This document shows, in pieces, positions 1 through 18,480 of a DNA stretch of 32,000 nt. The notes beneath the pieces are model-generated. The model was not told the DNA's origin. It did no database searches and saw only the letters and a program-made list of their open reading frames with translations. Positions within the stretch are counted from its first letter, which is position 1, and every line of letters starts with the position of its first letter. This DNA is from an uncultured archaeon (GTDB lineage: Archaea; Aenigmatarchaeota; Aenigmatarchaeia; QMZS01), in assembly GCA_964547015.1 (NCBI GenBank), contig CAZJKT010000010.1, forward strand, positions 6,694 through 38,693, written 5' to 3'. A program made the position numbers and the translations under genes.

Positions 1-3000
1 ACCGGGGACTATCCCGGAAGTGAGATAGTTGTAGGCAGCAATGACCAAAAGATATATATTCTTAACAGCACAGGCTCTCCGATAGGGGATTTTCTTGCAA
101 ATAATTTCATAAATGCTGTGGGTATTGGCGGCTTGGCAGAAAGCCCGGGTCTTGAAGCCGCTGCAGGCGGGGCAGATGGAACGGTATATATATTCAATTT
201 TGACTATTTTCCAACAAACCTTTCAATAGATGTCGGGAATAACGGAAATAGGGAATGGGTTTCGGGCCATGAAAAACTGAGAGGCTCTGAGGTTGCATCA
301 GGGGACAATATAACTGATGCAATAAACACCTATCTTGAGGCATGCTCTCCGGATGCATCAGGCAACTGCCAGATCCCTCTTGCATTTGAATCAAAGTTTA
401 AGGGAATGCTCAATATAGGCAGCCTATCGGTCTCGTACCTTTACAATGTTTCCGGGCTTTTCCAAAAAACACCTGCTTTTAGCTGGTCAAGGATAAGCAA
501 TATATCCGCGGGGGAGAGTGTAGGGTATTCTGTATACAATATTACTTTTTCCGGAATCCCTTCAGAAAATTTATCGGTATATTATCTGTTCGTCAACCAA
601 AGCGCTACGGCATGCGACTTTAACTTTGCAAAAAGAAGCGTTGCGGATATTGGGGGCTCAAAAGTGTGCGATATAACTTTAGAGCCTTTGTTTTTTGAGG
701 CGGGCGTTTCCATAAACTCAAGCGAGAGCTCTTTTTTGTTTTGGGATGACACAATGGAGTCGCAAGTCGCGATTCATTTGGATAACCTGACCGATTATTT
801 TACTGAATACGGCGAGCCTGACAGGTACACTCGGCAGGCAAATCTGTCCCTATATACGGATAACGGCTCTTTTTTGTGGGCAAGCGCTGATTGGGTGGTA
901 AATGACTCCCAAATTAAGGGTGAGGAATTTTTGAGGGTGTTTGACGGAGGAGAATGCGATATCACCCCGCCAGACGCTCAGGATGACTGCGATTCAGAAG
1001 CCCCGGAGTTTACCTACCAAAAAACCTGCAGCCAGTACAGCTTCTTTTCCTGCAAAAAGGAGACTGGGGACGGGATGTATTTCAGGTGGGCCCAGTCAAG
1101 CCTGTCTTCAGACGCGCCAACCTTATTTCAGGCAGGCGGATCATATAATTTAAGGCCGGAGCTATCCAATCTCTCGGCAATTCCAAATTCTTCCATTTGG
1201 GGGACCAATATCACTTTTTCGGCAGATTTATATGATGAAGAGTCTGATGGCGTCAATGCAACCCTGTGGATATACCATTCAGGAAATTGGCATAATGAAT
1301 CTCAAAAATCGGTTTTGGGCTCGATTTTGCAGTTTAATGTTACTTCAGCTAAGGAATGGGTAGGCGTTGCGCAGTATCTTTTTGAGTATTATGACTACAA
1401 CCTGACAGGCCTTTCCCAGATTTTCCACCTGCCACAAAACACCACAGCTAAAAACTTTACAATTGAAAAGCATAATTCAGAGGTAATCTATAGCCCTTTT
1501 TTGGGGACATTTGGAAATGCAACCTCAGTCTATCTCAATAACACAGCTTATCTTTCGGCATACATTAACGACACTGATTTGGGGGAGCCTGCAGTGGGGG
1601 CATCCTGCGCGCTATGGGTAGGGGAAATTTTGTCGGGAACAAACCTGACAAATTCAACAGGGCACTGCAATATTGTATTTTTACCAAACCAGTCCTATAG
1701 TGTCGGAGAAAAGAAATGGAAAATAGGCATTCTTGGGGATGGGGCATACAGCAACTCAAACTCAACAGAGCTTGACATTGAAATTCGCGGTGAATTGCAA
1801 ATATCCATTATAGGTGAGGAAGATATGGAATTTTATCGGGGAATGCCAAAAGAGTTTGGGGCGCAGCTTCAGGATGTTTACGGACGAACTCCAAACCTAA
1901 GCAATTACAACTGCTCTTTTAACCTTTCAGGCTCAGGAATTAATTCAAATATAGGCTCAAATATGACTTTGGAAGGAGCTTGCGCTATTTATTATGCGGC
2001 GGGATGCGGAGGGGTGTGCGCCTCGGTCGGTGAAAAGAACCTGTCAGTTCAGGCCTCCCGAATCGGGGCTGATGATTACTATGATATTTCAGGATTTTCG
2101 GCTCAGGATATGGTTCAGGCGGCCCTCAAAGATTCCCTTGTTGTGTCTGTCCATGAACCCGAAGACTTGCTTTATTACAAAGGCAGCCAAATCCCCCTCA
2201 ATGCAACTGCCGCCGACTCCTGCTCGGAAGTGGGCGATGTTATTACAGAATGGAGCCTTATTAACAAAAATTTTATCAATGTTACGGTAACAGACATTAG
2301 CGGGTCGGATAGGGAGGATTATCCGATAATTTTAGGCGCAAGCTTATTTTCCTCGGAGCAGTTTGATATCGGCTCATGGATTATAAACAACACGAAAATT
2401 ACCCTCCGGGGAGAGGAAATCCCATTTGAGATATACCCGTGGTCTGATGAGGGAGAATCTTTGCTAAACAATTCGCAGGAGAATATGTCTGAATATTCAA
2501 AAATAGTTTTTTTGGCGGATCTGCCCGCATCATCAAGCAAAACTTTTGAGATTGATTTGAGATATTACAATCCGGAATTCTACACCTACAATGTCCCTTA
2601 CAGCCTGAGGAATGCAGGATTTGGCTCAGGGAATTTTTCCTATTGGACGGAGTCTGCCTGCTCGAGTTCGGGATGCGGAGTTGAGGTTTCCGGTTCAGGG
2701 GGAATGCGCTTTGCAAACCTTTCTGCAGGAAACGGGCTGACTTCAATATTTCAGGGAATTCCAAACCACGCCGCCCATACAGGAGAGATTCAGATAAAAT
2801 ATAAGGCATGGGGGGAATTTGGGCATTCGCTCTACCCGGGAGAGCTGTATATCCAATCCGGGGATTATGTCTGCAACCTTACGCCAAGCATTCTGGAAAA
2901 TGCTGACGGCGAGGGATATGTTTCTCAGCCATCAAACTGGACTGTTGCGAACTGCGCAGATATTTCGCTCCGATCCGCCCAGAATATTTCAATTATCCTA

Positions 3001-6000
3001 AAAGACATGGGGGACGGCGGGGCTGACCCTTCAAACACAAATGCATTGATAGATTATATTTGCTTTGCGGATGCTTTTGGGGAATGCGTCAGTTTCCACT
3101 CGGGCCTGCCCGATTCCGTTGAAGTATCCTTAAAAAAGAGCCTTGGGAGCGCTGAGGAATACTTAATCGGAGGTTTTGAGGAGGTTGGCAGAAGGAAAGC
3201 TGTTGCTATTGCATCCAAGGATTATTACACTTCCGGATACAATTCTGCATATTTCAATATATCCGGCTTTGCAAAAATTGGAAATTTTACTGTAGATTCG
3301 GAATACTGCTCAAGATGGGGGGATGAGCCTTTTAGGCATATTTGCATGAGCGATGCGCACATTTCCCTTGAGGCTGAAGTTTTGGACAACTTCACGCTAT
3401 CCGGAATATATAATTACAGCGTGGGCTTTTATAATGAGTCCGGATTAATGGGCTCAAACTATACCGGTGTTGGGGGCATAGCCGAATATTTTACTTCAGT
3501 CGGAAATGAAGAAAATTATACCTATACTGCCAATATATCTTCAATGCCGGGATTGTTTTATGAGGCAGTTGAGCCAAAAGGACTGTCGCTTGATATAATA
3601 ATTGATAATGGAACAACTGCAGGGAGTATTGAGCTGAACAATACTTATGAAACCGCTTCCGGAGTTGCCCTAGATAATAACCATACTTTTATGGTTTACC
3701 TGAACCTGACAAATACAGGAAGCAGCGGAATGTATGCAATAAATATTTCGTCAACAGAGTCTGAGGGAATAATTATACCAAAGTCTTATTGCAGTCCCCT
3801 GCCTTCAGGAAACTCCTGCGGAAGTGAAATAAATATTACCGTTACCGTGGATGCGGATGCAACCCAACAGGTGATTGTTTTCAATGCTTCATGGAGAAAC
3901 GGGGATGGGAGCAACAGCTCTACTCATTCAAACCTGACAATCAGCATTCCTGAAAATAAAAGGGCGGTATTTTATGAAGAGAGCCTTTACCTGTCAGCCC
4001 CGATAACAGCCATTCGCTCAGCCAATTTTACCGTTGTAAATTACGGCAATGTCAACCTGACAGGTGTATATTATAATATATCCGGGACCGATGCCGGGGA
4101 GGTTGCCGATTGGAGCGCTTTTATGGAAAATGCCTCGAATATTGCAAAGAAAGGCGAGAGGGAGAATTATATTCGGTTTGAAGTTCCCGGAAATGACACA
4201 CTAATAGGTGTTTATTTTTTCAATATTACTGCGACGATTCCGGACTGTTCCGTGGATTGCTCGGTGACACTGCCTTTCACCTTAAATGTCACCTCGCTTG
4301 ACTGGTATATTACCCCGGACACAAATCTCTCTCGGGTTGTCGGCCTAAAAGAAGAGCTAAAAAAGCTTGGGGAGTTTAATTTGGTAAATGTAGCCCCCGG
4401 AACTTATAATTATAATGTCACTGTATCGCCTCAGGCGGGTACCTCGGCTGAATTTTTGGTTCTTAACAGGGCATCCGGACAAAAAAATATTTCGTTCTCA
4501 CTGCAAAACCAGGCTTCAATGACAATAAGCGTATATTATAATACCAGCGTTTCTCCGGAAAGCCTTGGCTCATATATCGGGAAGCACAATTACACAATAA
4601 GGGCGCGCAACCTCAATGAGAGCGCGGTTCCGCAATATGTTGACCTTCCGGTTTATTTTGAGATAATCAATTTTACTGTAGATATAATTTCGCCTGCAGA
4701 GGCTGAACCCATAGGGGGGGTTTATGAAAATGATACCTTAGAGATTATTGTTGAGGCGATTTCTGGAAACTCGCCGGTTTCTGAAGGTATGGCTTGGTCG
4801 GCTGAAGTGGGGGGAGTTGTTTGCTTAAATGAAGGGCAGGCCCAATATAATGCTACGAGCGAAAAATGGCTTATTGAATGTTTTGCCCCGGAAATTCCAT
4901 CAAACAGGATAAATAACAGCCTTACGGTTACAGGGATTTATTCCCGTGAAGGAGGAGAGGTTGAGCTCTCCGATATTGAAGAAAATGCGGTGATATATGA
5001 AGATGTGTTGCCGCCTTGGTTTAGCAGAATTGCCTCAAGCCATATCAATTACTTTTCAGATGCCCCGACGCAATCCTTTAGGGTGAATGTTACCGACAAC
5101 CTTAATATTTCCTCGGTCTGGGCAGAAATCTCGGCTCCAAGCGGCCCGAATATTTCTTTGGGTGAGGGAAACTTCACAAAAAGCCCGATAAGCGACCCGG
5201 ATTTCGAAAGCTATGAGTATATCTTTTCTTTTGCAAACCCTAATGAGGTTGGGGACTATGATATTTTTGTCTATGCAAATGATACCGGAGGCAGGGTTGG
5301 AATTGCCGGGGGGTGGTTTGAGGTATATCGCCCGATTACTGCCGCAGGAAACCTGTCAAACCCTAAAGGGGAGGGGATAAATGCGACTTTCAGGTTTTAT
5401 AGGGCAGGCCACAACAGGACTGACTTGTATTTTATGGGAAGCTACTCTGTTTTTGGCGGAGATTATAGCTGGGCGCTCCACAAAAGGAAATATGATGTGG
5501 TCGCGGAAATATTCGGCCACGAGATTGCGCTTTTGGATGCGGATTTCAATATAGAGCCAAATACCACAGATTCTCCGTTTAAGTTTGATAATTTCCCACA
5601 TAAAAACTCAGAGGATATGTCAAATATCCTTTTGCCTGATACTGCTAACCGGCAGAGCATTTTGCTTGCGGTTGTTGTTGAGTCCGCCCTAAACCTTTCG
5701 GGAGCTGAATTTAGCATAAATTATACAGAGGCTTTGGGGCAGGGGAGCTTTTCTGAAAACCTCCTTAAGGCGTTTTACTGCCAAAACTGGAATTACACAA
5801 CACGGTCTTGCTCTGAGGGGGAATTTAGCTATCTTGAAGGGGGATATGCGCCTGAAATTATCTCAAATATTTTTAATTTTTCCACAAATCACCTGTCAGC
5901 CTATGCTGTTGCGGAAAGCTCTTACCCTGATAAGTGGGGGGTTTCGCCTCCTGCCCCGGACCCCGGGACTTCCCCTGCGCCGGGAGGCTCTGCCCCAAGG

Positions 6001-7923
6001 GACACTTCTTCAGGCATTAGCGAGCCGAGGCCTTTTTGCGGCAACGGAATATGCGAAATAGGGGAGAATGCGGATAATTGCCCTCAGGACTGCTCAAGGG
6101 ACTTTCCGCTGGAAGTTGACACAAACCTTGAGGATGCGCGGATTTTCCTTGGGGAATCAAAAGAATACTGGATATCATTAGGCAACCTCCATGAGAGAGA
6201 TATAAATGCCACGATTTCATTGAGCGACAATATGGCGGGATTTATTTCAATGCAAGAAAGCCGGGTTCAGGTTCCAAAGGGAGGGCGCTTTAGGCTCAAC
6301 CTTTCGGTAACAGCCCCTCTAGATCAGGCGGTGGGGACATATGGAGGCTATGTAATTTTGGAGGCGGAAGGGAAGAAAAAATCCCTTCCAATAACACTAA
6401 GGCTTCTTGAAAGCGCAAAATTGATTTTAAAGATGGATGTTGAAATTCCCTCCCAGAAGATAAATGCCGGAAAGAACTTGAGTTTTGTGGTGAAGCTTGT
6501 GAATTTGGGTGACCGGGGGAATTTTGAGCTGAATATTGATTATCTTGTTATACGCCAGTCCGACAACAAGATTGTGAAGCAGTTCAACACTTCAGCTGAG
6601 CTTGAGTCGGCCGCTGTATTGCGGGAAACTCTTGAGCTTGGCCAATTAGAGACGGGATATTATAACCTTGAAGTATGGGCTAATTATAATGATAAGAGTA
6701 TTATGGATGTGGCAAGTTTTGAGATAGTCAAGCCATTATTCGAGTCCCCGCTTACGGTGGCTCTGCTTCTTTTGGCCCTTGCAATGGCGGTCCTTGTAGG
6801 GGGAACTTATATTTGGAACTATTACCGCGCATGGAAAAAGGAAAAGGAAAAGCAGGAGAGGTACTTATATCCTTTGGATTATAATGCAGTGCCAAAATCA
6901 GGGTTTAGGATTGGCAAATTTGCCGGTAGGGACAATGTGTTTTATTATGACCCGAGGGACCTCTCAACACATATTATTGCCGCAGGGGCGACAGGTTCAG
7001 GCAAATCGGTAACTGCCTCGGTTTTTGCCGAAGAGGCCCTTGACCGAAAGCTGCCGGTGATTGTATTTGACCCTACAGCCCAGTGGACAGGGTTTGTAAA
7101 GCCGCTCAAAGACAAAAACCTTCTGGCGCGATACAGGGCCTTTGGCATGAATGATTATGATATTAAGTCCTATCCGGGCCTAATCTATGACATAGACGAC
7201 CCTAACTTTAAGCTTGATGTTAAGAAGTTTATAAATCCGGGAGAGATTACCGTTTTCTGCCTTAACCGCCTAAAGCCGGGAGAATATGATATTGCAGTGA
7301 AAAACATAATCTCCACACTATTTTCGGAGAACTGGGAGGAGAGTACGGAACTCAAGGCAATATTTGTCTTTGACGAGGTGCACAGGCTCCTTGAGAAGTA
7401 TGGGGGTAGCGGAGGGTATACTGCGCTTGAGAAGGCCGCAAGGGAGTTTAGAAAGTGGGGGCTAGGTGTAATAATGTGCTCTCAGGTTCTTGCGGATTTC
7501 AAGGAAGCGATTGCAGGAAATGTATTGACTGAAGTCCAGCTCAACACAAAGTCTCTTGCGGATATTTCAAAAGTAAAGACAAAGTACGGGGAGAGGTATG
7601 CGGAAAGGATTACAAGAATGGGTGTGGGCGCGGGACTGTTCCAGCACCCGAAGTACAATTCAGGAAAGCCGTTTTTTGTAGAATTTAGGCCCACAAAGCA
7701 CGACCCGCATAAAATCACCGACCAGGAGCTCACGCTTTACAAGGAATATACTGAGAGGCTTGATAAGATTGGGGAAAAGATTGCCCAAATAAAATCCGGA
7801 GGGGGTTATGTTGAGAATTACGAGATTGACTATAAGCTTGCCTTAAATAAGCTTAAGAGAGGCAACTTCAGAATGTCTGAGATTTATATTTCCTCCCTTG
7901 AAAAGGCATTGGAGAGAGCATGA
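1..7923 (+). CDS. Giant cell-surface protein (5'-partial; continues upstream of the window) with one TM helix and a C-terminal cytoplasmic HerA/FtsK-superfamily (DUF87-type) P-loop ATPase domain
   Basis: Frame 1 has no stop from nt 1 up to the listed GTG at 118. The extra residues TGDYPGSEIVVGSNDQKIYILNSTGSPIGDF look like an FG-GAP/VCBS propeller blade, so the true start lies upstream. The ORF is uninterrupted to TGA at 7921-7923. N-x-S/T sequons are very dense. CARDB-like strands are present (MVYLNLTNTGSSGMYAINIS, FVVKLVNLGDRGNFELNIDY). A Pro-rich linker is followed by CGNGICEIGENADNCPQDC, then a TM helix at 6748-6816 and ATPase motifs. Confidence 0.9.
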   Translation, partial: TGDYPGSEIVVGSNDQKIYILNSTGSPIGDFLANNFINAVGIGGLAESPGLEAAAGGADGTVYIFNFDYFPTNLSIDVGNNGNREWVSGHEKLRGSEVASGDNITDAINTYLEACSPDASGNCQIPLAFESKFKGMLNIGSLSVSYLYNVSGLFQKTPAFSWSRISNISAGESVGYSVYNITFSGIPSENLSVYYLFVNQSATACDFNFAKRSVADIGGSKVCDITLEPLFFEAGVSINSSESSFLFWDDTMESQVAIHLDNLTDYFTEYGEPDRYTRQANLSLYTDNGSFLWASADWVVNDSQIKGEEFLRVFDGGECDITPPDAQDDCDSEAPEFTYQKTCSQYSFFSCKKETGDGMYFRWAQSSLSSDAPTLFQAGGSYNLRPELSNLSAIPNSSIWGTNITFSADLYDEESDGVNATLWIYHSGNWHNESQKSVLGSILQFNVTSAKEWVGVAQYLFEYYDYNLTGLSQIFHLPQNTTAKNFTIEKHNSEVIYSPFLGTFGNATSVYLNNTAYLSAYINDTDLGEPAVGASCALWVGEILSGTNLTNSTGHCNIVFLPNQSYSVGEKKWKIGILGDGAYSNSNSTELDIEIRGELQISIIGEEDMEFYRGMPKEFGAQLQDVYGRTPNLSNYNCSFNLSGSGINSNIGSNMTLEGACAIYYAAGCGGVCASVGEKNLSVQASRIGADDYYDISGFSAQDMVQAALKDSLVVSVHEPEDLLYYKGSQIPLNATAADSCSEVGDVITEWSLINKNFINVTVTDISGSDREDYPIILGASLFSSEQFDIGSWIINNTKITLRGEEIPFEIYPWSDEGESLLNNSQENMSEYSKIVFLADLPASSSKTFEIDLRYYNPEFYTYNVPYSLRNAGFGSGNFSYWTESACSSSGCGVEVSGSGGMRFANLSAGNGLTSIFQGIPNHAAHTGEIQIKYKAWGEFGHSLYPGELYIQSGDYVCNLTPSILENADGEGYVSQPSNWTVANCADISLRSAQNISIILKDMGDGGADPSNTNALIDYICFADAFGECVSFHSGLPDSVEVSLKKSLGSAEEYLIGGFEEVGRRKAVAIASKDYYTSGYNSAYFNISGFAKIGNFTVDSEYCSRWGDEPFRHICMSDAHISLEAEVLDNFTLSGIYNYSVGFYNESGLMGSNYTGVGGIAEYFTSVGNEENYTYTANISSMPGLFYEAVEPKGLSLDIIIDNGTTAGSIELNNTYETASGVALDNNHTFMVYLNLTNTGSSGMYAINISSTESEGIIIPKSYCSPLPSGNSCGSEINITVTVDADATQQVIVFNASWRNGDGSNSSTHSNLTISIPENKRAVFYEESLYLSAPITAIRSANFTVVNYGNVNLTGVYYNISGTDAGEVADWSAFMENASNIAKKGERENYIRFEVPGNDTLIGVYFFNITATIPDCSVDCSVTLPFTLNVTSLDWYITPDTNLSRVVGLKEELKKLGEFNLVNVAPGTYNYNVTVSPQAGTSAEFLVLNRASGQKNISFSLQNQASMTISVYYNTSVSPESLGSYIGKHNYTIRARNLNESAVPQYVDLPVYFEIINFTVDIISPAEAEPIGGVYENDTLEIIVEAISGNSPVSEGMAWSAEVGGVVCLNEGQAQYNATSEKWLIECFAPEIPSNRINNSLTVTGIYSREGGEVELSDIEENAVIYEDVLPPWFSRIASSHINYFSDAPTQSFRVNVTDNLNISSVWAEISAPSGPNISLGEGNFTKSPISDPDFESYEYIFSFANPNEVGDYDIFVYANDTGGRVGIAGGWFEVYRPITAAGNLSNPKGEGINATFRFYRAGHNRTDLYFMGSYSVFGGDYSWALHKRKYDVVAEIFGHEIALLDADFNIEPNTTDSPFKFDNFPHKNSEDMSNILLPDTANRQSILLAVVVESALNLSGAEFSINYTEALGQGSFSENLLKAFYCQNWNYTTRSCSEGEFSYLEGGYAPEIISNIFNFSTNHLSAYAVAESSYPDKWGVSPPAPDPGTSPAPGGSAPRDTSSGISEPRPFCGNGICEIGENADNCPQDCSRDFPLEVDTNLEDARIFLGESKEYWISLGNLHERDINATISLSDNMAGFISMQESRVQVPKGGRFRLNLSVTAPLDQAVGTYGGYVILEAEGKKKSLPITLRLLESAKLILKMDVEIPSQKINAGKNLSFVVKLVNLGDRGNFELNIDYLVIRQSDNKIVKQFNTSAELESAAVLRETLELGQLETGYYNLEVWANYNDKSIMDVASFEIVKPLFESPLTVALLLLALAMAVLVGGTYIWNYYRAWKKEKEKQERYLYPLDYNAVPKSGFRIGKFAGRDNVFYYDPRDLSTHIIAAGATGSGKSVTASVFAEEALDRKLPVIVFDPTAQWTGFVKPLKDKNLLARYRAFGMNDYDIKSYPGLIYDIDDPNFKLDVKKFINPGEITVFCLNRLKPGEYDIAVKNIISTLFSENWEESTELKAIFVFDEVHRLLEKYGGSGGYTALEKAAREFRKWGLGVIMCSQVLADFKEAIAGNVLTEVQLNTKSLADISKVKTKYGERYAERITRMGVGAGLFQHPKYNSGKPFFVEFRPTKHDPHKITDQELTLYKEYTERLDKIGEKIAQIKSGGGYVENYEIDYKLALNKLKRGNFRMSEIYISSLEKALERA
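6748..6816 (+). other. Single predicted transmembrane helix of the giant protein (PLTVALLLLALAMAVLVGGTYIW)
   Basis: A 23-residue hydrophobic stretch is followed by the basic RAWKKEKEKQER. By the positive-inside rule the downstream ATPase domain sits in the cytoplasm. Confidence 0.75.
6940..7710 (+). other. HerA/FtsK-like ATPase domain inside the giant ORF
   Basis: Walker A is GATGSGKS (6985-7008) and is followed by PVIVFDPTAQW. Walker B is AIFVFDEVH (about 7357-7383). AREFRKWGLGVIMCSQVLADF resembles the GRKyG...sQrP motif of HerA/DUF87 ATPases. Motif order and spacing match that family. Confidence 0.7.
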
Positions 7924-9675: not shown

Positions 9676-12600
9676 TTATTTTCCCGCTTTTTTGATTTCC
9701 TGCTTAAGAGTCTTTTTCTGGTAAATTTTGCGGTTGGCAATTATAAGGACTAACCCAATAGCCAGAAGGAAGGCAATCCAAGGTATCTTTGAGCTTTCTT
9801 CGCAAAGTATAGGCACAGTTTTTTCGCTGATAAGGAGCGTCTTAAATTCAGATTTGTAATAGGCTTTTAGAGTGTATTCCCCATCATCGCAAAGGGGCAG
9901 AGGGATTTTAATTAAGGATTGTTTTGGAACTTCGTCAATCTCAATAATATCTGCATAGATGAGGTCTCTTGAAGGGTTTGGACCTGAGAATTCTATTTCG
10001 ATGTAGCCGTCTTTGTTATAGGGTATCAATATAAAATCAAGGAGCATATTTTCGCGGCAGGAATACTCCAGCTTATCAAGGCTCATTATAATTTTTGGGG
10101 GGCGTTCTCGGTAAGTTATATTGACGGTTATATTTTGGCCCGAAGCTATTTCGGGTATCGGAATATCTATTCCGGTATCGGTCCTTATAAAATCATGGCT
10201 GCACTCCAGAATATCCTTAATTTCCAGAGGCAAGGTCGCGTTAAAATATGCCCTTCTTGCAAAATTTTGGATGGTTAATTGGGTGTTGAAGGTTATTATG
10301 CCCTCGCCAACCTCAATTATTTCTGTCTTTCTGCCGACTTCAAGTATTGGGGGCGTTGTAAGTTCTAGAATATAAGTGGAGCGGGCATTTTGCGCAATGT
10401 TAACTATAAAGTTCACATATTGGGCCTCTTCCTCGTGGGGTATTTTTGAAGTTTCTCCGTTAACAGACTCAAGGACATGAACACTAAGCCGGTCATCATA
10501 AACTCCGAAAGAATAGCGTTCCCTTACCTGCCTTTCGTTAGGGTTTATTATATTTATGGCTTTTATCCATTTTACCGGGCTGCCGACTATGGCTTTTAGC
10601 GGTTCCCAGGGCCCTTCCCTAATTTCAAGGTCCTGCAGCCGCCAGTATTCTCTTCTTACTTGGGTCACAATGTCCTCGAAGAAATATTTGTCCTCATAAT
10701 AATTATACCCGTAGGCCCTGGTGATGATAGTGTTTGTGCCAAAAGGAAGCTCGGAGTAGTAATTGATGTTTATTGAGTCCCCCTCATAAAAGGTCAGAGG
10801 ATTTAGAGGGTCGGACTTTAATTGGACAATATATTCGCGGTATTCGGTTTCCCCTAATTTTTTTATCCCGTTGTCTTTTACCCCAAATAGGATATTTTCG
10901 GGTATTTCGCCTCTGACGGATATTAATTTTATGCTGTAAATGTCAAGCTTTGAATTGAGGGGAAGATATATGAAAAAGATCGGGTCCCTAAGGCCTTTTC
11001 CTCCGGTATCCACAACTCTGAAAGTTGCATTATTGAAGTGGAGCGACTCTGTGAGAAGAAAATCGTTTGCGTCTTTCCTTATTATTTCAAGAACAGGCAA
11101 AGGAGCGATTCCCCCCCCACCGCCGCCCCCTCCGGGAGCCGCTGAATAGATCCCCGGAATCGTGAGCTCACGGGTAAGTATTTTTTGAGCGGGCGTCCCG
11201 CTTTTAGTTTTCCCGATGGCTGTTAGTCCGAATTGGTAGGTTTTTTGCTCATCTTCTTTGCCGCTTGATAGAATATAGGTGATTTGCGCAATATCATTTT
11301 GCTGCATCGAGAGATTGCTTAGATATATCAGGCTTCTGCCGGGCATTGAGCTTACGGAAGTTATATTAATTTCAGCCCTTCCGCTGCCGTTGGCAATATA
11401 TGCCTTTAGCCCAGACAGTGTCCAGATTTCAGAATAGCTGATATTGAAGAGAATGGAATCCGCTTGAAGATTTGCGTGGCCGATATGCCTCATTGTATCT
11501 GTTACTTCAAGGCTTCTGCCGGATTCGCCATTGCTTAATATATCTATTCGCTTATCAGCCGAAAAATCCATCTGGTAGAGCGTTGGCATATCCATATAGC
11601 CCTGCAAAATCCCGCGATAGTAGGAGCTGCCCCACTTTACTTCCCAGTCATATGCCGCGGAGTAATATATTGCTTTATTTATCGGGTCTGTAGGCAATAC
11701 TGCCGCAGGAATTCCGGTGTCATACTCATCGGTGTAGACCACTTCGCCGGGCAGGATTTCCCGATTTGGGTTTCCGGAAAGTGAAGAGGTGTTTGAATCA
11801 ACTTCATAGAGCGCCCAGCTGTGCACGCGGTATATCTGGCCGTAAGCGATATTTTTCATAAATCCCCGCACCATCCAATTTGCTTTGGGGGTAATCTCAA
11901 CGCCCTGCCTGAGGCTGCCTCTTGAAAAGCGGTCGGCAAATGAAATCCCGCTAAATGAGGCGGATTGGGTATAGTCCACGAGGGTTTCTTGGGAATCTAT
12001 ATCCGCTGAAAGAATGCCTGAATCATAATTTATGTCCGGAGCTATTGATGCGTAAAGGGTTATGTTTGCGTAAGTCCTGAGGTTTCCTGTCCATACTGCT
12101 TTATCAAAATGCCCGTTTGAATTGGAGTCCAAAATTTCAATGCTTCCGGAACTTGAGGTAGCATTAATAATGTTCATTGAGTCCCCCCCTTCAAAAACAT
12201 CCCTGTTTGCGATAAAGTTTGCGGTTATACTATTGAGGTTTTCTGAGGCATTGAGGTGAATAATAAATTCAAGGGTGTTATTTTCAGGGCCGAGGTCATT
12301 TCCGCCGATGAGGTTACGGTAGCCCATCCTGATGCTTATTGATTTATTCTGGGAGAATGTGTAGGTTGTGGCTTCATTGCTTTCATTTGTTGAAATATAG
12401 AGCCTTGTGCGATCCCCGGAATATGGGGAGGCGGCAACTGCGGCATAAGCTGTGGAATTTATGAGGTTTGTGCGGTTTAGAGTTGAAAGCTCAATTACCA
12501 CATTTTGCAAAACATCCATGGTATTTGCAAGCTCCACCTCTATTGACCCCTCATTTGAAGAGCTTATCAATGTTCCGTTATAATGGCTATAGCTTAGGCT

Positions 12601-12705
12601 TCTCTCAATAATGTATGATGTCGGCACGCAAAGCCCGATTCCGGGAATAATGCATACTGCGATAAATGCCCCCAAAAGCAGAACGCTTTTTTTGCGGCGC
12701 TCCAT
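9676..12705 (-). CDS. Large type-I membrane/surface protein (N-terminal signal or anchor, C-terminal TM anchor), S-layer/adhesin-like
   Basis: 1,009 aa. The N-terminus is MERRKKSVLLLGAFIAVCIIPGIGLC (basic, then hydrophobic). The C-terminus is IPWIAFLLAIGLVLIIANRKIYQKK (TM plus a basic tail). Many N-x-S/T sequons and an internal G8 tract are present. Confidence 0.85.
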   Translation of the reverse strand: MERRKKSVLLLGAFIAVCIIPGIGLCVPTSYIIERSLSYSHYNGTLISSSNEGSIEVELANTMDVLQNVVIELSTLNRTNLINSTAYAAVAASPYSGDRTRLYISTNESNEATTYTFSQNKSISIRMGYRNLIGGNDLGPENNTLEFIIHLNASENLNSITANFIANRDVFEGGDSMNIINATSSSGSIEILDSNSNGHFDKAVWTGNLRTYANITLYASIAPDINYDSGILSADIDSQETLVDYTQSASFSGISFADRFSRGSLRQGVEITPKANWMVRGFMKNIAYGQIYRVHSWALYEVDSNTSSLSGNPNREILPGEVVYTDEYDTGIPAAVLPTDPINKAIYYSAAYDWEVKWGSSYYRGILQGYMDMPTLYQMDFSADKRIDILSNGESGRSLEVTDTMRHIGHANLQADSILFNISYSEIWTLSGLKAYIANGSGRAEINITSVSSMPGRSLIYLSNLSMQQNDIAQITYILSSGKEDEQKTYQFGLTAIGKTKSGTPAQKILTRELTIPGIYSAAPGGGGGGGGIAPLPVLEIIRKDANDFLLTESLHFNNATFRVVDTGGKGLRDPIFFIYLPLNSKLDIYSIKLISVRGEIPENILFGVKDNGIKKLGETEYREYIVQLKSDPLNPLTFYEGDSININYYSELPFGTNTIITRAYGYNYYEDKYFFEDIVTQVRREYWRLQDLEIREGPWEPLKAIVGSPVKWIKAINIINPNERQVRERYSFGVYDDRLSVHVLESVNGETSKIPHEEEAQYVNFIVNIAQNARSTYILELTTPPILEVGRKTEIIEVGEGIITFNTQLTIQNFARRAYFNATLPLEIKDILECSHDFIRTDTGIDIPIPEIASGQNITVNITYRERPPKIIMSLDKLEYSCRENMLLDFILIPYNKDGYIEIEFSGPNPSRDLIYADIIEIDEVPKQSLIKIPLPLCDDGEYTLKAYYKSEFKTLLISEKTVPILCEESSKIPWIAFLLAIGLVLIIANRKIYQKKTLKQEIKKAGK

Positions 12706-12753: not shown

Positions 12754-12907
12754 TTGGGTTTGAGGACTTAAGGGTTAGGGATTGGGTTTGAGGACTTAAG
12801 GGTTAGGGATTGGGTTTGAGGATTTAGGGGTTAGGGATTGGGTTTGAGGATTTAAGGGTTAGGGATTGGGTTTAAGGACTTGAGGGTTAGGGCTTGAGGA
12901 TTTGATG
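12754..12907. repeat. Head-to-tail tandem repeat, 28-bp unit (TTGGGTTTGAGGACTTAAGGGTTAGGGA), 5 full copies plus a partial copy
   Basis: Units start at 12754, 12782, 12810, 12838 and 12866, with a partial copy at 12894-12907. Each unit has 1-3 substitutions. There are no spacers. It lies in the divergent intergenic region between the 9676-12705(-) and 13087-14253(+) genes. Confidence 0.95.
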
Positions 12908-13086: not shown

Positions 13087-14253
13087 ATGGGCAAAAATCT
13101 CAAAGGCGGCCTCATTGAAAACCAAATAAGCCTTGTATTTTTGGTTTTTATAGTGATACTTGTTTTTGTTGCGGGAGCTGTTGCAAAAATGCATACCCTC
13201 GTTGCGGGCCCGCCAATAAAGATTACGACATATGGGGAGCAGATTGGGCTTGATATTTTTCCGGTTTCGGCTTTAACCCTTCTTAATTCCGATCCCGGCT
13301 CGCAGAATGCTTTTGAGAGGATTGCAGATTACGGGGGGGATGGGGTAATAATTATGCCCCGTTCTAAATTTATAAGCTATTTTGAGGATAGCCCCGAATT
13401 TTATGATGTTGATTTTAGTTTCCTAAATGAAGCGCTTATGAAAATAGAGGAAGATTATAGCCGTGACGCTTTTCGGAGGGAGTTTTGCATGATAAAGCAC
13501 AGCCAGGGCCTTGATATCATTATTGGGCTTGACCCGATACTAAGGAAGAGCGAGAATAATCCCGGATGCAGCTATTATAACCCCATAGAAACGCCGTTTA
13601 CTTTCAGCAAAAATTTTCCCTATGAATGCAGTTTTGAGGAGAAGGGCATATTTTCGGCTTTGGGGGAAAATATGAGGGTCAGGATTGCTGTTTGCTGCAA
13701 GGGAATAAAGTCCTGCGCGAATTATAAGGCTGAAGTCGGATATGATTTCTGCAATTCAGACCCTTGCGGGGTCGGGCCTTGCAGGATTGTTGCAAAGGAA
13801 AAGAGGGTGTGCGCTGAAAGCTCCCCGCCTTCAATAAGCATTCTTGCCAGGCTTGAGGGCGATAGTGAAGCCGCTTTTTTCGATAATTTGCGCGAGTTAA
13901 GGTATAAGGCTGAAGGGGAGATGCTGCAGCCGATTAGGGTGGATTTTAGGATTTTGGTTCTTCCAAATGAGGAAAAATTCAGCCGGGCGGCAATAAGGTT
14001 TGGGGGCAGAGGCGGCGGTTTTTTTGAGGCCCCTTCCCTATATGAATTAGGAAATGTCCTTGAAAGCCATAATCTGGCTAATGTTGAATATATTTCCTCA
14101 AATAACCAAAACCCGCAAGACCCGGACATGTCTAAAGGGGCAAGCCTTACTTTTAAATGGGAATATGCAATGCCCGGCGAATATCCTGTTGAATATAAAG
14201 TGTGGCATGAAAGCGGGACTTCATCAGAAGTATACCTGGTGATTATAGAATAG
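13087..14253 (+). CDS. Cys-rich secreted/membrane-anchored protein with a class-III (type IV pilin-like) N-terminus
   Basis: The N-terminus is MGKNLKGGLIENQISLVFLVFIVILVFVAGAVA: short and basic, then Gly, then QISL plus a hydrophobic helix. This resembles the archaeal class-III signal (G|QISxEF...). The rest has about 14 Cys, including CCKGIKSC and CNSDPCGVGPC. Confidence 0.8.
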   Translation: MGKNLKGGLIENQISLVFLVFIVILVFVAGAVAKMHTLVAGPPIKITTYGEQIGLDIFPVSALTLLNSDPGSQNAFERIADYGGDGVIIMPRSKFISYFEDSPEFYDVDFSFLNEALMKIEEDYSRDAFRREFCMIKHSQGLDIIIGLDPILRKSENNPGCSYYNPIETPFTFSKNFPYECSFEEKGIFSALGENMRVRIAVCCKGIKSCANYKAEVGYDFCNSDPCGVGPCRIVAKEKRVCAESSPPSISILARLEGDSEAAFFDNLRELRYKAEGEMLQPIRVDFRILVLPNEEKFSRAAIRFGGRGGGFFEAPSLYELGNVLESHNLANVEYISSNNQNPQDPDMSKGASLTFKWEYAMPGEYPVEYKVWHESGTSSEVYLVIIE

Positions 14254-14282
14254 GTTCCTTTTAATCTAAGCCCTAATTATTT

Positions 14283-16022
14283 ATGGGCTTCCCTCTTTTA
14301 GGTATTACTGCCGCCGCTCTGATAATTGCGCTTGGGGCAACTATATTCTTTGGGGGAAATTTTGCGCAGGATTACCTGTTGGAACTTCCTGAGCAGCATC
14401 TGGGGCGGCTAATTGTCTCTTACCATACAATTGACCGGTCAATAAAATCGACATTGGACAATAATGCCGGAGCCATATTTGAAAAGGCCGCTGACCGCCC
14501 TTTGGACTGGAGCGGGCTGGAAAATAAGGGCTCGCAAGAGGCGGTAGGGGAGATTATTGAGATGTACAGATTAAGCCTTGAGGGGGCGGCTCAGGAATAT
14601 TTCAATTCGGTCAGTTATGTTGGCTCAGATGTTCAGGAGGTTGTTTCTGTTGGCAGTATTCTTGAGCTTGACGGCGAAGGGATGAAATGGGAGTATCGTT
14701 ACAAAATAGGGCTTCAAAATACCTATTCATGGGATATGCACCAGGGCCTTATAAGGAACACAATAAACTCTGAGGAAAGCCACGAAATTCAGTTTGAGTT
14801 TTTGGATTTGGAAAAAGCTCATCTGTGCGCAAAATCCTTTTTTCGTGAAGCCGGGAAGGGAATCAATATAGAGGGGGTTGAGAGGCTTAAGGCAAAACAG
14901 TACACCGACAGGGCGCTCAATGAATATGCTGCTGAGGTTTCGGGGACAGTTAATTGCGCGGGATTTTCTATTGAATCAAGGGTGATAACTTTGCCTTCCT
15001 GCATTTCGGACTTATGCGGCAATGAGGGCTGGGATAATGCGGATGTTGCCCTTATAATCAGAAAAACTTATTCAGCCAACCGCGCCTCAATAGCATTCAA
15101 AAACAGCATGGGCCTGTTTAAGGGCGGAGGAAAAAGGCTTATTTCTTGCCAGACGGGCTTGGACTGCATGGGGTCAGGGACAGGAGAGCTTGATTGCATA
15201 GGCGGATTTTGCGCATCCTGTTTAGGGCAATTTGAAGGAGCGGCTTGCTCGCCTTACGGGCAGGGAACTCCTTTAGGAAACAGCCAATGCTACAAGTATC
15301 TTCGGGATCTTTCCTCAGGAGCTTTTGAAGGCTATAAATGCCTGCCATCAAAAGAAGGGATTAGGATAAGCGACGGCGAGAGGTTTTATTCAGACGGCGA
15401 AGCAATTTCCGTAAACTGCGCATCTAAAGAAAAAAAGATTCGGCTTGTGAGCGCAAGCAAGGATGATTTGGATAGGGATTACACAAAGCTTTCAAAAGCC
15501 TATTTTAACGGAATTATTTTTAGCCCTTCCGGAGCCGGAGACTCCTTAGGCGAATATTATGATGTCTGCCTGCAAAGGGATTTTCCAAGAGTCAGCGGCA
15601 GGTTTGAGGTATACCTTAAGGATAGCTTAGGGGGAGATTTATATTACAGGGCGGCTTTAGCCTATCTGGATTATTCAATAGATGGATGTATATCTAAGCT
15701 CAACAGCAGACTTATAGGATTCACGCACAATTTTGATAAAACTTCTTGCGCAGGCCTTTACCGTGAAGCAAACCTTTCAATAAACCGGGCTATCCGGTCG
15801 GTGAACTGCCCGGGGTATCATGTTGGCATTATGGAAGCCCCGGCCCTTTCCAACTGCATCATTGAATGCGGATCTGTTTCTCTTGGAGATTGCGCAAAGG
15901 AAACCGCATGGGAAAGTGAGCTGTATTCGGCATACTTAATCGGAATATGGAAAGAAGGCAATGTTATGGAACGCGAAACAGCTCTTGCAACTTCAGGATA
16001 TATACTCAATTATTCGCCCTAA
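14283..16022 (+). CDS. Cys-rich secreted/membrane-anchored protein, function unknown
   Basis: 579 aa with an N-terminal hydrophobic helix (MGFPLLGITAAALIIALGATIFFGG). A Cys cluster is present (CQTGLDCMGSGTGELDCIGGFCASCLGQFEGAAC). It starts 29 nt after the previous gene on the same strand. Confidence 0.8.
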   Translation: MGFPLLGITAAALIIALGATIFFGGNFAQDYLLELPEQHLGRLIVSYHTIDRSIKSTLDNNAGAIFEKAADRPLDWSGLENKGSQEAVGEIIEMYRLSLEGAAQEYFNSVSYVGSDVQEVVSVGSILELDGEGMKWEYRYKIGLQNTYSWDMHQGLIRNTINSEESHEIQFEFLDLEKAHLCAKSFFREAGKGINIEGVERLKAKQYTDRALNEYAAEVSGTVNCAGFSIESRVITLPSCISDLCGNEGWDNADVALIIRKTYSANRASIAFKNSMGLFKGGGKRLISCQTGLDCMGSGTGELDCIGGFCASCLGQFEGAACSPYGQGTPLGNSQCYKYLRDLSSGAFEGYKCLPSKEGIRISDGERFYSDGEAISVNCASKEKKIRLVSASKDDLDRDYTKLSKAYFNGIIFSPSGAGDSLGEYYDVCLQRDFPRVSGRFEVYLKDSLGGDLYYRAALAYLDYSIDGCISKLNSRLIGFTHNFDKTSCAGLYREANLSINRAIRSVNCPGYHVGIMEAPALSNCIIECGSVSLGDCAKETAWESELYSAYLIGIWKEGNVMERETALATSGYILNYSP

Positions 16023-16025
16023 ATT

Positions 16026-16181
16026 ATGGAGATGCCCTCAAAAATGATTTTTGGAATCCTTTTGCTTATAATGGTGCTGGTTATTGTCCTTTACGGGATA
16101 ATTGACCAGGGGATAGTCCAGGGGCTGAATTCAATCCTTGATATTGCCCGAGAATGGCTCTCAAAGCTTCTTCCAAATTAG
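16026..16181 (+). CDS. Small (51 aa) single-pass membrane protein, absent from the supplied ORF track (below its size cut-off)
   Basis: ATG at 16026 lies 3 nt after the TAA of the upstream gene. My hand translation is MEMPSKMIFGILLLIMVLVIVLYGIIDQGIVQGLNSILDIAREWLSKLLPN, ending at TAG 16179-16181. It fills the whole gap before the convergent ATPase gene. Confidence 0.5.
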   Translation: MEMPSKMIFGILLLIMVLVIVLYGIIDQGIVQGLNSILDIAREWLSKLLPN

Positions 16182-16197
16182 AATAATTAAAATCAGG

Positions 16198-18480
16198 CTA
16201 TTCGAAAGGGTTTTCAAAGTCAGGCAGGCCTTTTTTCCCTTCGGTTTTTATATATTCCTTAAGCCAGGAATACCATCTTTTGTAGATTTCATCAGTGTCC
16301 AAAACCCCTATTTCTTTTTTGACCTGCTCGGAGAATATATGAAACATGTTGTTTGAAAGGACTATTGACTGGGCTTCAACAAGTTCGGGATTTCCTGTCT
16401 TTACAGACATTTCCGAAACAGTCTTTAGGATGTTTGCGCGCAGGTTAATGTTGCCCCATACTGCTTCCCATTCTCCCCTCCACTCTTTGACTCTTCTTGC
16501 AATGTCGGTTATCAGTTCGCTTTCGCCCGCAAGAAGGGTTGGGGTCGGCTCAAGCTCATCGGTTTTTGCATTATATTCCATCAAGTTAATAAAGCCCTTT
16601 TCCCTTGCAGGGTCCTCCTGCCAGTGCTTTCTGACCTCAGTTATCTCAACAGTCCTTCTAAAAGACCTAAGCCCGTCAGCGGATTTTAAGGAATTGTTTA
16701 TAACTACGAGGTCTGTTGCCTTAAAGGATGTTGGGGGCACATTAAGGTCATTTACTACCCTGTCAAACAGCCCGAAAGCGCTGTCGCCGTGTATAGTTCC
16801 GGCCACAACATTTGCCATTGCGCCTATTCGCATCGCCTCATAAAGGGCAAGCGCTTCCTTGCTTCTTACCTCACCGATAATAAGGCAGGAGTCCCCAAGG
16901 CGGAGAGAAACCCTTAAGGCCTCTTCTGCAGGAAGCTCTGTTTCAACCATTGTTATGACCGACCTTGATTTGAGCCTTGTTACATTGTAGCCCATTTCTC
17001 GGAATTTTGTCAGAGGAAGCTCGAGGGTGTCCTCCACAGAAATTATCCGTTTGCTCTTCATAATCTGGGTAATAATCGCGCCAAGCAGGGATGTTTTTCC
17101 GGCGCTTCTTGTCCCCCCTACAAGCATAGTCCTTCCCCCGTCAACCACAAACCATAAAAGCCCTGCCGCAAGAGGGGTCATCATCCTTTGGTTTATGAAT
17201 AGGGGCAGAGTCCATGGCCTTTCCCTGTGGCGCCTGAGGGCAAACCCAAGGCCGCCCGGAGAGAGCGACTGCATTATGGCGCAAATCCTTGCCCTTCCCC
17301 CGGGAATTGACAGCTCAGTGTCAAGGACAGGGTTTGCCTCATCAAGAGGCCTGCCTGAAGAAAGCCTAAGCCTTGTTGCAAGAAGCTCGGCATCCTCGCT
17401 TGTAAGCACAATATTTGTTATGCATTCCCCGACTTCGCCGTGGAGAAGGTAAATTGGCGAGGTTCCGGGAGGGGCATTAACATAGACATCCTGCACATTA
17501 TCATCAGAGAGTATGAGCTCAAGGATTCCGATTCCTGCCGTGTACCTTACAAGCACCCTTGCTATAATTTTTAGGCGCTCATCTGAGAGAACCATGTTAT
17601 CCTCGCTTGAAAGCTCCCTTAACATATCAAGGCCGATATTATAAAAACTTTGCCTTACTTCCTCTGATGCGAGCTCTTCTCTTTCAAGAGGGCGGTGGTT
17701 TGCCATGTATCTTCTGGCTTTGTCCAAAAGCGCGTATTCTTCCTCTTCCATTTTAAATTCAAGAGGGATTAAATGGTATAAGAACCGGACTTCTCGGGGT
17801 ATTCGGTAAACCTCCACTTTGGCGTCGGGTATTGTATAGCTGTTTACAAGTTCGGACCCTTCAGGGGGGGTGGCCATGAATTTCGTGTAGGTGAACCTTG
17901 GCCGAACCGATGGGATGAAGAGCTGGCGATATATTGTGCGCTCTCCGATTTTGTATCCGGGAAGGAGGTCTTTTGCCCTCTTTATAAGCTTTGTGCCTTC
18001 CAGCAGTTCTATTAGGGGAATGAGCGCATTTTCAAGGTAGTGGCCGTAACAATTATGGCAGATTCCCTTTGTGCGCTCGGAGAGGACTTTAATGTGGCGG
18101 ATTTTTCGCCTAAGCTTTACATAGGCGCCGACAGGGTCCGCTTTTAGCTGGATTAAGATTAGGTTTCTTAGGAAGTCCACCCTTTCGGATACGCACCGGT
18201 CGCATTTGTCGGTTACAAGATTTTGGTAGGAGGTGGCTTTCAGGTCGCGGGTCGCCCTCTCAATCACTTGGGCAATTTCTATAAGCATAAGGGCGGCTTC
18301 GTAATTATATTCATACTCCCTTTCTTTTTCAAGGATAATTGCCTTTGCGTCTTTTACTGCAATAAGGTGGTTTATTGCGGCGGACATGCATTGAGGGAAA
18401 TCCTCAATAGATGAGCCGTAGATGCACTTTAGGCACTCGATTTTCAGCACATTGTTCTTGTACTCATATTTGCAGGGCAT
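16198..18480 (-). CDS. Type II/IV secretion-family ATPase (archaeal ArlI/FlaI-PilB-like) with a long Cys-motif N-terminal extension
   Basis: Walker A is GGTRSAGKTS (about 17092-17118 on the + strand). DSCLIIGEVRSKEA matches the PDxIIVGEIR Walker B/Asp-box region. AGTIHGDSA is the His box. At 760 aa it is about 200 aa longer than a typical FlaI. The N-terminus has the CxxC-like pairs CLKC, CDRC and CHNC. Confidence 0.9.
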   Translation of the reverse strand: MPCKYEYKNNVLKIECLKCIYGSSIEDFPQCMSAAINHLIAVKDAKAIILEKEREYEYNYEAALMLIEIAQVIERATRDLKATSYQNLVTDKCDRCVSERVDFLRNLILIQLKADPVGAYVKLRRKIRHIKVLSERTKGICHNCYGHYLENALIPLIELLEGTKLIKRAKDLLPGYKIGERTIYRQLFIPSVRPRFTYTKFMATPPEGSELVNSYTIPDAKVEVYRIPREVRFLYHLIPLEFKMEEEEYALLDKARRYMANHRPLEREELASEEVRQSFYNIGLDMLRELSSEDNMVLSDERLKIIARVLVRYTAGIGILELILSDDNVQDVYVNAPPGTSPIYLLHGEVGECITNIVLTSEDAELLATRLRLSSGRPLDEANPVLDTELSIPGGRARICAIMQSLSPGGLGFALRRHRERPWTLPLFINQRMMTPLAAGLLWFVVDGGRTMLVGGTRSAGKTSLLGAIITQIMKSKRIISVEDTLELPLTKFREMGYNVTRLKSRSVITMVETELPAEEALRVSLRLGDSCLIIGEVRSKEALALYEAMRIGAMANVVAGTIHGDSAFGLFDRVVNDLNVPPTSFKATDLVVINNSLKSADGLRSFRRTVEITEVRKHWQEDPAREKGFINLMEYNAKTDELEPTPTLLAGESELITDIARRVKEWRGEWEAVWGNINLRANILKTVSEMSVKTGNPELVEAQSIVLSNNMFHIFSEQVKKEIGVLDTDEIYKRWYSWLKEYIKTEGKKGLPDFENPFE

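Follow-up and report, generated by a model that had tools for sequence, protein, structure and literature searches.

DPANN archaea depend on host cells, and the means by which they attach to a host and extract material from it are largely obscure, the leading candidates being proteins of the SPEARE type. The question taken up here is raised by a 32,000-nucleotide stretch of DNA from an uncultured archaeon of the Aenigmatarchaeota (lineage QMZS01; GenBank assembly GCA_964547015.1, contig CAZJKT010000010.1, positions 6,694 to 38,693), hereafter the window, which opens inside a single giant gene joining a very large surface domain to a cytoplasmic P-loop ATPase: what kind of protein is this, and what might a motor inside the cell do for an arm outside it? 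A first-pass annotation, made from the sequence alone, had recognised the fusion and knew of no characterised protein with such an architecture. It has in fact been published, as the SPEARE proteins (PMC6642349) or giant membrane-anchored proteins (PMC10266531) of the Nanohaloarchaeota, and homology between these and the window protein could be confirmed directly, so that the architecture is already known and no new kind of system is revealed. The best overall explanation, which we consider likely, is that the gene encodes an Aenigmatarchaeota SPEARE orthologue with a ring motor that would act at the contact with the host, together with a co-encoded coiled-coil partner.

What is new here is the occurrence of this architecture in the Aenigmatarchaeota as a compact (~3,000 amino acids, aa), length-conserved and end-to-end orthologous gene, along with an invariant and apparently active HerA-clade ATPase, a conserved coiled-coil protein as cytoplasmic partner, and surface-protein genes that recur in the neighbourhood. 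The published annotation is modestly refined, in that the motor is HerA-like and neither a restriction enzyme nor a bona fide VirB4. At ~3,000 aa and of fixed length, the Aenigmatarchaeota version offers a smaller target for biochemistry and cryo-electron microscopy, and would be the most tractable form for structural work.

The fused gene and its relatives

Frame 1 of the forward strand runs from nucleotide (nt) 1 to 7923 as 2,640 codons and a stop, without an internal stop codon on translation, just as first described; because it is open at the window edge, the list of open reading frames (ORFs) starts it only at 118 (118–7923). The upstream part came from an exhaustive search in which the final 1,200 residues of the ORF served as query; it returned a full-length protein of 2,979 aa (P0121), identical to the window ORF except at 2 of 2,640 residues, which adds 339 residues at the N-terminus, where it has a signal/anchor sequence (MGKCTTSVIAITVFIALLLWLGLGIIFSYG). 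This protein is encoded on two contigs from separate JGI metagenomes (3300037528 and 3300033172), both of which are 99.98–99.99% identical to the window along 17,923 nt, with 2–3 mismatches, no gaps and an identical gene order. The polypeptide opens with the N-terminal signal/anchor and a PQQ-like propeller, which are followed by an ectodomain of ~2,200 aa rich in sequons; a Pro-rich linker and the 4-Cys motif then lead to a pair of immunoglobulin (Ig)-like sandwiches and the one transmembrane helix, beyond which lie a HerA-clade P-loop ATPase with intact catalytic motifs and a helical tail. Sequence and model analyses thus agree with the earlier description of a giant sequon-rich ectodomain, a single transmembrane helix and a cytoplasmic ATPase in one gene.

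A fusion of this kind could also arise if two adjacent genes, one for a giant adhesin and one for a HerA-like membrane ATPase of ~650 aa, had been merged by sequencing error or a chimeric join. Stand-alone members of the family do exist (620–700 aa), which have a signal peptide of their own (P0070 and P0038, for example, start with one), begin at the equivalent of ~6.0 kb and align only from window residue ~2013 onward; in the Nanohaloarchaeota such a short paralogue lies directly after the giant gene, and one relative is split by a frameshift. It is at ~6.0 kb that the informative junction lies, and not at 6.7–6.95 kb, where a frame break had been looked for, because the latter interval falls inside a ~630-aa module that is a single ORF in every family member; no break was present there in the three near-identical contigs or in dozens of diverged orthologues. 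At ~6.0 kb the window has the Pro-rich linker instead, with no hydrophobic remnant, signal peptide or start site. In the split relative (L002, 4201–4214; JABAOF010039450.1), the orthologous giant gene is broken with a 14-nt ORF overlap and P0021, the downstream half with the ATPase, lacks a signal peptide, so it is the split, rather than the fusion, that looks like an error, either of sequencing or through decay to a pseudogene.

Further evidence comes from other species. In no fewer than 10 other species genomes, P0121 residues ~10–2979 are covered by single BLASTP alignments with 31–46% identity, the end-to-end colinear orthologues being about 2,915–3,107 aa in length. In the 80 species-genome loci that matched best, the reading frame was traced upstream of the ATPase, which proved to end a giant open frame in nearly all of them; some 27 were closed ORFs of roughly 2,900–3,100 aa, and short closed ORFs (670–1,534 aa) were seen in only about five. 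A fused frame kept at such divergence is therefore a real gene, and, with no indel among three contigs from different samples, a merger of two genes is hardly credible: the three gap-free, 99.98%-identical contigs and the fused frame across diverged species rule out both a chimeric join and a hidden frameshift, and the fusion is not an assembly artefact. A subclass of relatives of ~2,210 aa lacks residues ~1080–2006 (BLASTP with the 2,979-aa protein).

The published relatives are larger still. The SPEARE proteins that Hamm et al. (2019) reported from Nanohaloarchaeota measure up to 8,553 aa and are mostly extracytoplasmic, with a transmembrane helix near the C-terminus; the authors interpreted the conserved cytoplasmic region as a type III restriction enzyme, demonstrated expression by proteomics and noted similar sequences in Woesearchaeota, Aenigmarchaeota and Micrarchaeota (PMC6642349). 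Reva et al. (2023) gave the domain order as a signal peptide, PQQ-like beta-propellers, many Ig-like domains, a transmembrane segment, a VirB4/TraG-like ATPase and a coiled coil (PMC10266531). The giants reported in the two studies include those of Ca. Nanohaloarchaeum antarcticus (5,998 aa), SG9 (8,553 aa), Ca. Nanohalovita (BNXNv_0298, 8,880 aa) and Ca. Nanohalococcus (SVXNc_0300, 9,409 aa) (PMC6642349, PMC10266531). In BNXNv_0298, 1,217 aligned positions at the C-terminal end correspond to window residues 1463–2637 (31% identity; E 6e-155, BLASTP), and the SG9 giant matches residues 1450–2638 at 30% (E 1.8e-147), the similarity reaching ~550 residues past the ATPase module into the ectodomain; P0092, which is AQV86_02330 of the Fig. 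7 legend in that literature, is 50% identical over the ATPase region.

In its layout P0121 shows what has been described for the family, namely great length (2,979 aa), an N-terminal signal, a PQQ-like propeller near the N-terminus, a single near-C-terminal transmembrane helix, a cytoplasmic P-loop ATPase and three modelled terminal helices that correspond to the C-terminal coiled coil of Reva et al. The ectodomain was also defined by Hamm et al. through laminin-G, adhesion and serine-protease regions (PMC6642349), which Reva et al. dispute even in the founding members (PMC10266531); for laminin-G, adhesion, protease or toxin-like regions there was no Pfam match at E up to 1, whether with the whole of P0121 or with 500-aa pieces. 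On the strength of this homology, the giant protein very probably belongs to the SPEARE, or giant membrane-anchored extracellular, family as a member from the Aenigmatarchaeota, themselves part of the DPANN. Literature searches for an Aenigmatarchaeota-specific description yielded only the Nanohaloarchaeota papers.

Comparison with the Nanohaloarchaeota giants brings out both likeness and difference. The proteins agree in the order of their domains and are homologous over the last ~1,200 aa (E about 1e-150), both sets of organisms are small-genome DPANN symbionts, and in Ca. Nanohalovita a gene of ~520 aa follows the ATPase genes, the position that the coiled-coil gene has in the window. Unlike the 6,000–9,400-aa giants, with their many near-identical tandem repeats, the much shorter window protein (2,979 aa in full) has a fixed length and an ectodomain that is colinear across species; its lineage is apparently non-halophilic, and lacks the second, tandem ATPase paralogue downstream. 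Where present in Nanohaloarchaeota (L001, 10001–11887; L086, 10001–11878), that short paralogue (625–628 aa) follows the giant gene with a 1–4 nt overlap, and in it the same ATPase is joined to a transmembrane helix, an Ig-like ectodomain and a signal peptide of its own.

The wider family is large. Matches fell into 1,106 representative clusters, about half of the best 150 exceeding 2,000 aa (up to 7,878 aa) with the module at or near the C-terminal end, and at least 567 stretches in the collection of species-representative genomes encode a relative. The best species-genome matches are to Candidatus Aenigmatarchaeota metagenome-assembled genomes (MAGs), at 60–73% identity. Relatives also occur in MAGs labelled Methanosarcinales, Heimdallarchaeota, Hydrothermarchaeum profundi and Makaraimicrobium (L024, L033, L064, L066, L083), the one in H. 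profundi lying on a 1.9-Mb contig in an apparently interrupted gene; these could reflect mis-binning or horizontal transfer.

Topology and the class of the motor

The window ORF contains 95 strict N-x(not P)-S/T sequons, every one of them before the transmembrane helix. In the full-length protein, the ectodomain has 111 where composition shuffles lead one to expect 33 ± 5, an enrichment of ~3.3-fold, and the cytoplasmic part has none where 1.4 would be expected. This split of 111 outside and 0 inside, together with the basic residues that follow the transmembrane helix, places the ATPase inside the cell, as had been proposed, and the ectodomain sequons are presumably N-glycosylated. Several finer points of the first-pass annotation need revision: the count for the first ~270 residues is 10 strict sequons rather than at least 12, and what was taken for an FG-GAP/VCBS-like blade at the start is the tail of a PQQ/BamB-like beta-propeller, which in P0121 matches PF25292 (50 bits) and PF13360 (39.4 bits) above their cut-offs over residues ~130–380, and PF13570 over residues 167–376, FG-GAP itself not being recovered by Pfam. 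CARDB-like signatures likewise found no CARDB match in Pfam, and the membrane-proximal region is instead modelled as two Ig-like beta-sandwiches.

That model, made with AlphaFold2 (AF2) for window residues 2005–2640 from 52 homologues (m6341c69b0c78), has a mean predicted local distance difference test score (pLDDT) of 90.5 and consists of the two sandwiches (strands in model residues 33–132 and 139–239), a long transmembrane helix, a RecA-like alpha/beta core and three terminal helices. Foldseek matches the sandwiches to Ig-like folds, RbmA, WxLIP and transglutaminase beta-barrels. Further out, the bulk of the ectodomain (nt 112–5919), searched in 500-aa pieces, has no Pfam match, and Tandem Repeats Finder (TRF) detected no tandem repeats within the giant ORF, ruling out a repeat-built ectodomain. 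The quoted motifs, from the Pro-rich linker and 4-Cys motif through the transmembrane helix and basic stretch to those of the ATPase, were all found in place; the 4-Cys motif has the consensus CGxxxCxxxENxxxCPxDC in a 52-sequence alignment, this being a majority consensus and not an invariant one.

The ATPase is a motor of the FtsK-HerA superfamily, closest to HerA, and on this the Pfam, PDB sequence and profile, and Foldseek searches agree with each other and with the original reading. DUF87 (37.4 bits versus a gathering cut-off of 23.2) and HerA_C (41.7 versus 22) are both recovered, over the P-loop region of each model only, while the PDB alignments and Foldseek matches extend through the core. 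Matches in the PDB by sequence and profile are HerA-type (4d2i, SIR2-HerA, DUF4297-HerA, HerA-NurA and YjgR), plus one marginal match to IcmO/DotL, and the alignment to Sulfolobus HerA has the ARExRKxG...SQ motif in common. With an ATPase-only AF2 model (pLDDT 91.1; predicted template-modelling score 0.90), Foldseek puts Sulfolobus HerA (4d2i; E 3.6e-12) at the head of the list, with anti-phage HerAs, DndH-C and HerA-NurA next, and places VirB4 (4ag6), TcpA, FtsK, STIV2 B204 and EssC lower, at E values around 1e-7 to 1e-6. The Walker A Lys, Walker B Asp-Glu, REFRK(WG) motif and SQ sensor are invariant across the 52 homologues, which indicates an apparently active enzyme.

None of the characterised systems built around such motors fits in full. 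The archaeal HerA of Sulfolobus (4d2i) and the anti-phage HerAs (SIR2-HerA, DUF4297-HerA) share the RecA-like core, Walker A and B motifs and ARExRKxG...SQ motif with the window protein, which differs from them in being membrane-anchored and fused to an ectodomain, and in having no HAS barrel and no NurA, SIR2 or DUF4297 partner; the TM-score is only ~0.55 and identity 13–18%. Between the transmembrane helix and Walker A there are only ~40 residues with two short strands, so that no HAS beta-barrel is present, and NurA, Mre11 and Rad50 domains are absent from the scanned window proteins, the lack of NurA having been remarked on before. A canonical HerA-NurA system is thus excluded by the missing barrel and partner, despite the HerA-type core. 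PADLOC matches to anti-phage HerA systems were weak and partial and no effector partners were seen, and such a system was also rejected. Membership of the FtsK and Ced families was rejected on models scoring below cut-off (FtsK_SpoIIIE 19.6 bits versus 24; CedD 35.6 versus 600, over 49 residues around the P-loop); AAA_10 in Pfam was likewise below cut-off and HerA_Thermprot in NCBIfam fragmentary and far below it (31.8 versus 800).

Possible roles at the contact with the host

How might such a motor be used? The ATPase probably assembles into a ring beneath the membrane, by analogy with its HerA, FtsK and VirB4 relatives, so that each motor would bear several ectodomains reaching out to bind the surface of a host cell. 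By hydrolysing ATP it could then move a polymer across the site of contact between symbiont and host, or exert force there, with the coiled-coil partner serving as a cytoplasmic scaffold or regulator. Nucleic acid would be the likeliest substrate because it is what most members of the FtsK-HerA superfamily move, and VirD4/TrwB/TcpA, FtsK and CedB, which likewise have a membrane anchor at the N-terminus and a ring-type motor behind it in the cytoplasm, may plausibly be analogous in function, as movers of a polymer across or at a membrane; unlike them, the window protein has no all-alpha domain, gamma domain, CedA or type IV secretion system (T4SS) partner genes, and no CedA-like gene was seen in the neighbourhood. 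Nucleic-acid translocation as the actual mechanism is put forward tentatively, as a possibility somewhat short of an even chance. That a ring motor with giant arms would act as an adhesin or conduit, as the first-pass annotation inferred, is essentially the same speculation as that already in the literature. Its most ambitious version, in which the family would form the conserved core of a DPANN-host contact apparatus, with a hexameric HerA-like motor bearing one giant glycosylated arm per subunit and assisted by the coiled-coil and flanking surface proteins in importing host nucleic acid or another polymer, we regard as improbable as a whole.

Several observations weigh against a translocating ring. 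A ring of subunits with a single transmembrane helix each would contain no more than six such helices, a poor channel for DNA, and no polytopic membrane partner was identified on examination of the window and the related loci, apart from small upstream proteins with one or two transmembrane segments. Genes of a T4SS (VirB3, VirB6, VirB8 or relaxase-like), of the Ced system or for NurA are absent from the scanned neighbours in the window and in the related locus L004. In addition, Hamm et al. found the ectodomain and the transmembrane-plus-cytoplasmic part in different gel size fractions (PMC6642349), from which the two halves may be cleaved apart in vivo; if so, the case for direct mechanical coupling between them would be weaker.

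The single helix and the want of a channel partner would suit a structural anchor or force transducer, in which the ATPase ring and the coiled-coil partner would tether, cluster or retract the giant adhesin, or remodel it or extract it from the membrane, and nothing is transported. Such a role would fit the conservation of the helical tail at the C-terminus and of the coiled-coil partner, and also the co-location of genes for surface proteins with a signal peptide and transmembrane anchor. To our knowledge, however, the characterised members of the FtsK-HerA superfamily are translocases of DNA or polypeptides and not cytoskeletal anchors, and we consider this explanation unlikely, if the strongest of the rivals.

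Slightly less probable again is the secretion 'straw' proposed by Reva et al. (2023), a type IV secretion-like device in which a VirB4/TraG-type motor works with a channel through the ectodomain to inject effectors into the host (PMC10266531). The placement of the motor directly after its membrane anchor, as in VirD4/TrwB, speaks for it, and so do weak, P-loop-centred matches to the TrwB_AAD_bind, TraC, VirB4 and TraD models and the presence of VirB4 (4ag6) and TcpA in the Foldseek list (E about 2e-7). These similarities are outweighed by those to HerA, whose Foldseek E-value is better than those of VirB4 and TcpA by some five orders of magnitude, and which accounts for all the PDB sequence and profile matches except the marginal IcmO/DotL. 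TrwB_AAD_bind does exceed its cut-off (25.8 bits versus 20.5), but only over 42 residues around the P-loop, and the NCBIfam models for TraC, VirB4 and TraD reach just 16–24 bits against cut-offs of 366–590 (TraC 24.4 versus 567; TraD 15.8 versus 366; VirB4 and TraC about 24 versus 567–590). For Reva et al. the VirB4 identity of the downstream paralogue was proved by PF03135 (PMC10266531), a domain that current Pfam did not recover, at E up to 10, in the window module, P0070 or P0082. Nor was there any sign, in the data examined, of the beta-rich ectodomain forming a channel. A VirB4 or VirD4 identity was accordingly rejected, on the absence of PF03135, the low model scores and the lack of T4SS genes nearby.

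On the original annotation (Hamm et al., 2019; PMC6642349), imported DNA would be degraded by the SPEARE motor acting as a type III restriction endonuclease, a reading that is next to impossible and was ruled out, since the weak Pfam match to ResIII over the P-loop falls below its cut-off (22.3 bits versus 22.5) and ResIII is a helicase/ATPase module rather than a nuclease, no nuclease domain is found by Pfam or NCBIfam, the RecA-like core and three helices account for the whole cytoplasmic part, and Reva et al. had likewise rejected the idea (PMC10266531). A HerA-like ring motor working at the host contact stays our preferred explanation, and it is with its possible partners in mind that the surrounding genes are described below.

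Neighbouring genes and further features of the window

The window has an archaeal gene content (PTH2, Sua5 and a PilB/FlaI-type ATPase), and the features of the giant gene and its two nearest neighbours are collected in Table 1. A homologue of the coiled-coil protein encoded directly downstream is found within 900 nt, on the same strand, in 59 of the 75 related loci with room for it, as counted after low-complexity filtering. The surface protein that follows is paralogous to one of 1,096 aa, also without a Pfam match, encoded upstream of the giant gene (L004, 1909–5199), and paralogues of this size (~1,000–1,100 aa) flank the giant gene in 24–28 of the 80 related loci, making them candidate S-layer or surface partners.

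Table 1. Positions of the giant gene, its parts and the adjacent genes in the window (nt)
Feature	Position	Strand	Basis or remark
Predicted SPEARE-type giant membrane protein, C-terminal 2,640 codons and stop	1..7923	+	Uninterrupted frame; first 339 codons upstream of window
Last blade(s) of PQQ/BamB-like beta-propeller	1..111	+	Pfam on P0121 (PF25292, PF13360, PF13570)
Sequon-rich ectodomain (~1,950 residues)	112..5919	+	Colinear in Aenigmatarchaeota orthologues, 31–46% identity over full length
Pro/Ser-rich linker	5920..6033	+	Motif position
4-Cys motif CGNGICEIGENADNCPQDC	6037..6093	+	Motif position
Two membrane-proximal Ig-like beta-sandwiches (window residues 2037–2136 and 2143–2243)	6109..6729	+	AF2 strands, Foldseek
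Single transmembrane helix	6751..6816	+	Hydropathy scan; AF2 long helix, model residues 246–281
Basic juxtamembrane stretch NYYRAWKKEKEKQERY	6817..6864	+	Cytoplasmic side, positive-inside rule
RecA-like P-loop ATPase core, FtsK-HerA superfamily, HerA-like	6904..7692	+	Pfam, PDB searches, Foldseek
Walker A GATGSGKS	6985..7008	+	Motif position
VIVFDPTAQW	7057..7086	+	Motif position
Walker B (DE) IFVFDEVH	7360..7383	+	Motif position
FRKWGLGVIMCSQ	7447..7485	+	Motif position; REFRKWG...SQ motif at about 7441–7485
C-terminal three-helix / coiled-coil tail	7720..7917	+	AF2 helices, model residues 570–595, 601–615 and 619–635, pLDDT >90
Coiled-coil partner, 525 aa, cytoplasmic, no transmembrane segment	7969..9546	+	Only generic coiled-coil/SMC-like matches
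Surface protein, 1,009 aa, signal peptide and C-terminal transmembrane anchor	9676..12705	-	No Pfam match

Directly upstream of the giant gene in L004 are two small genes (5219–5584 and 5588–5851) for proteins of 121 and 87 aa, each with transmembrane segment(s) followed by a charged helical tail; the 121-aa protein, with its transmembrane segment and coiled coil, is kept just upstream in 13 related loci. Further downstream in the window, a possible type IV pilus-like set spans 13087–18480, in which a pair of Cys-rich proteins (388 and 579 aa), each with a hydrophobic leader at the N-terminus, is accompanied by a PilB/FlaI-type T2SSE ATPase of 760 aa (16198–18480, minus strand). The last of these, ~8 kb away, is the sole secretion-type gene, and a homologue lies within ±10 kb of the giant gene in only 2 of the 80 related loci.

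Scans of the window for tRNAs and Rfam families gave no matches. Between the divergent genes for the 1,009-aa surface protein (minus strand) and the 388-aa protein (plus strand), TRF identified a G-rich 28-nt tandem repeat at 12754–12905 (5.4 copies, 91% matches, consensus TTGGGTTTGAGGACTTAAGGGTTAGGGA), which may be a regulatory array. At 18605–18677, an exact 36-nt tandem duplication within a 741-aa ORF places ISERSDSYFNHS twice near the N-terminus of its product.

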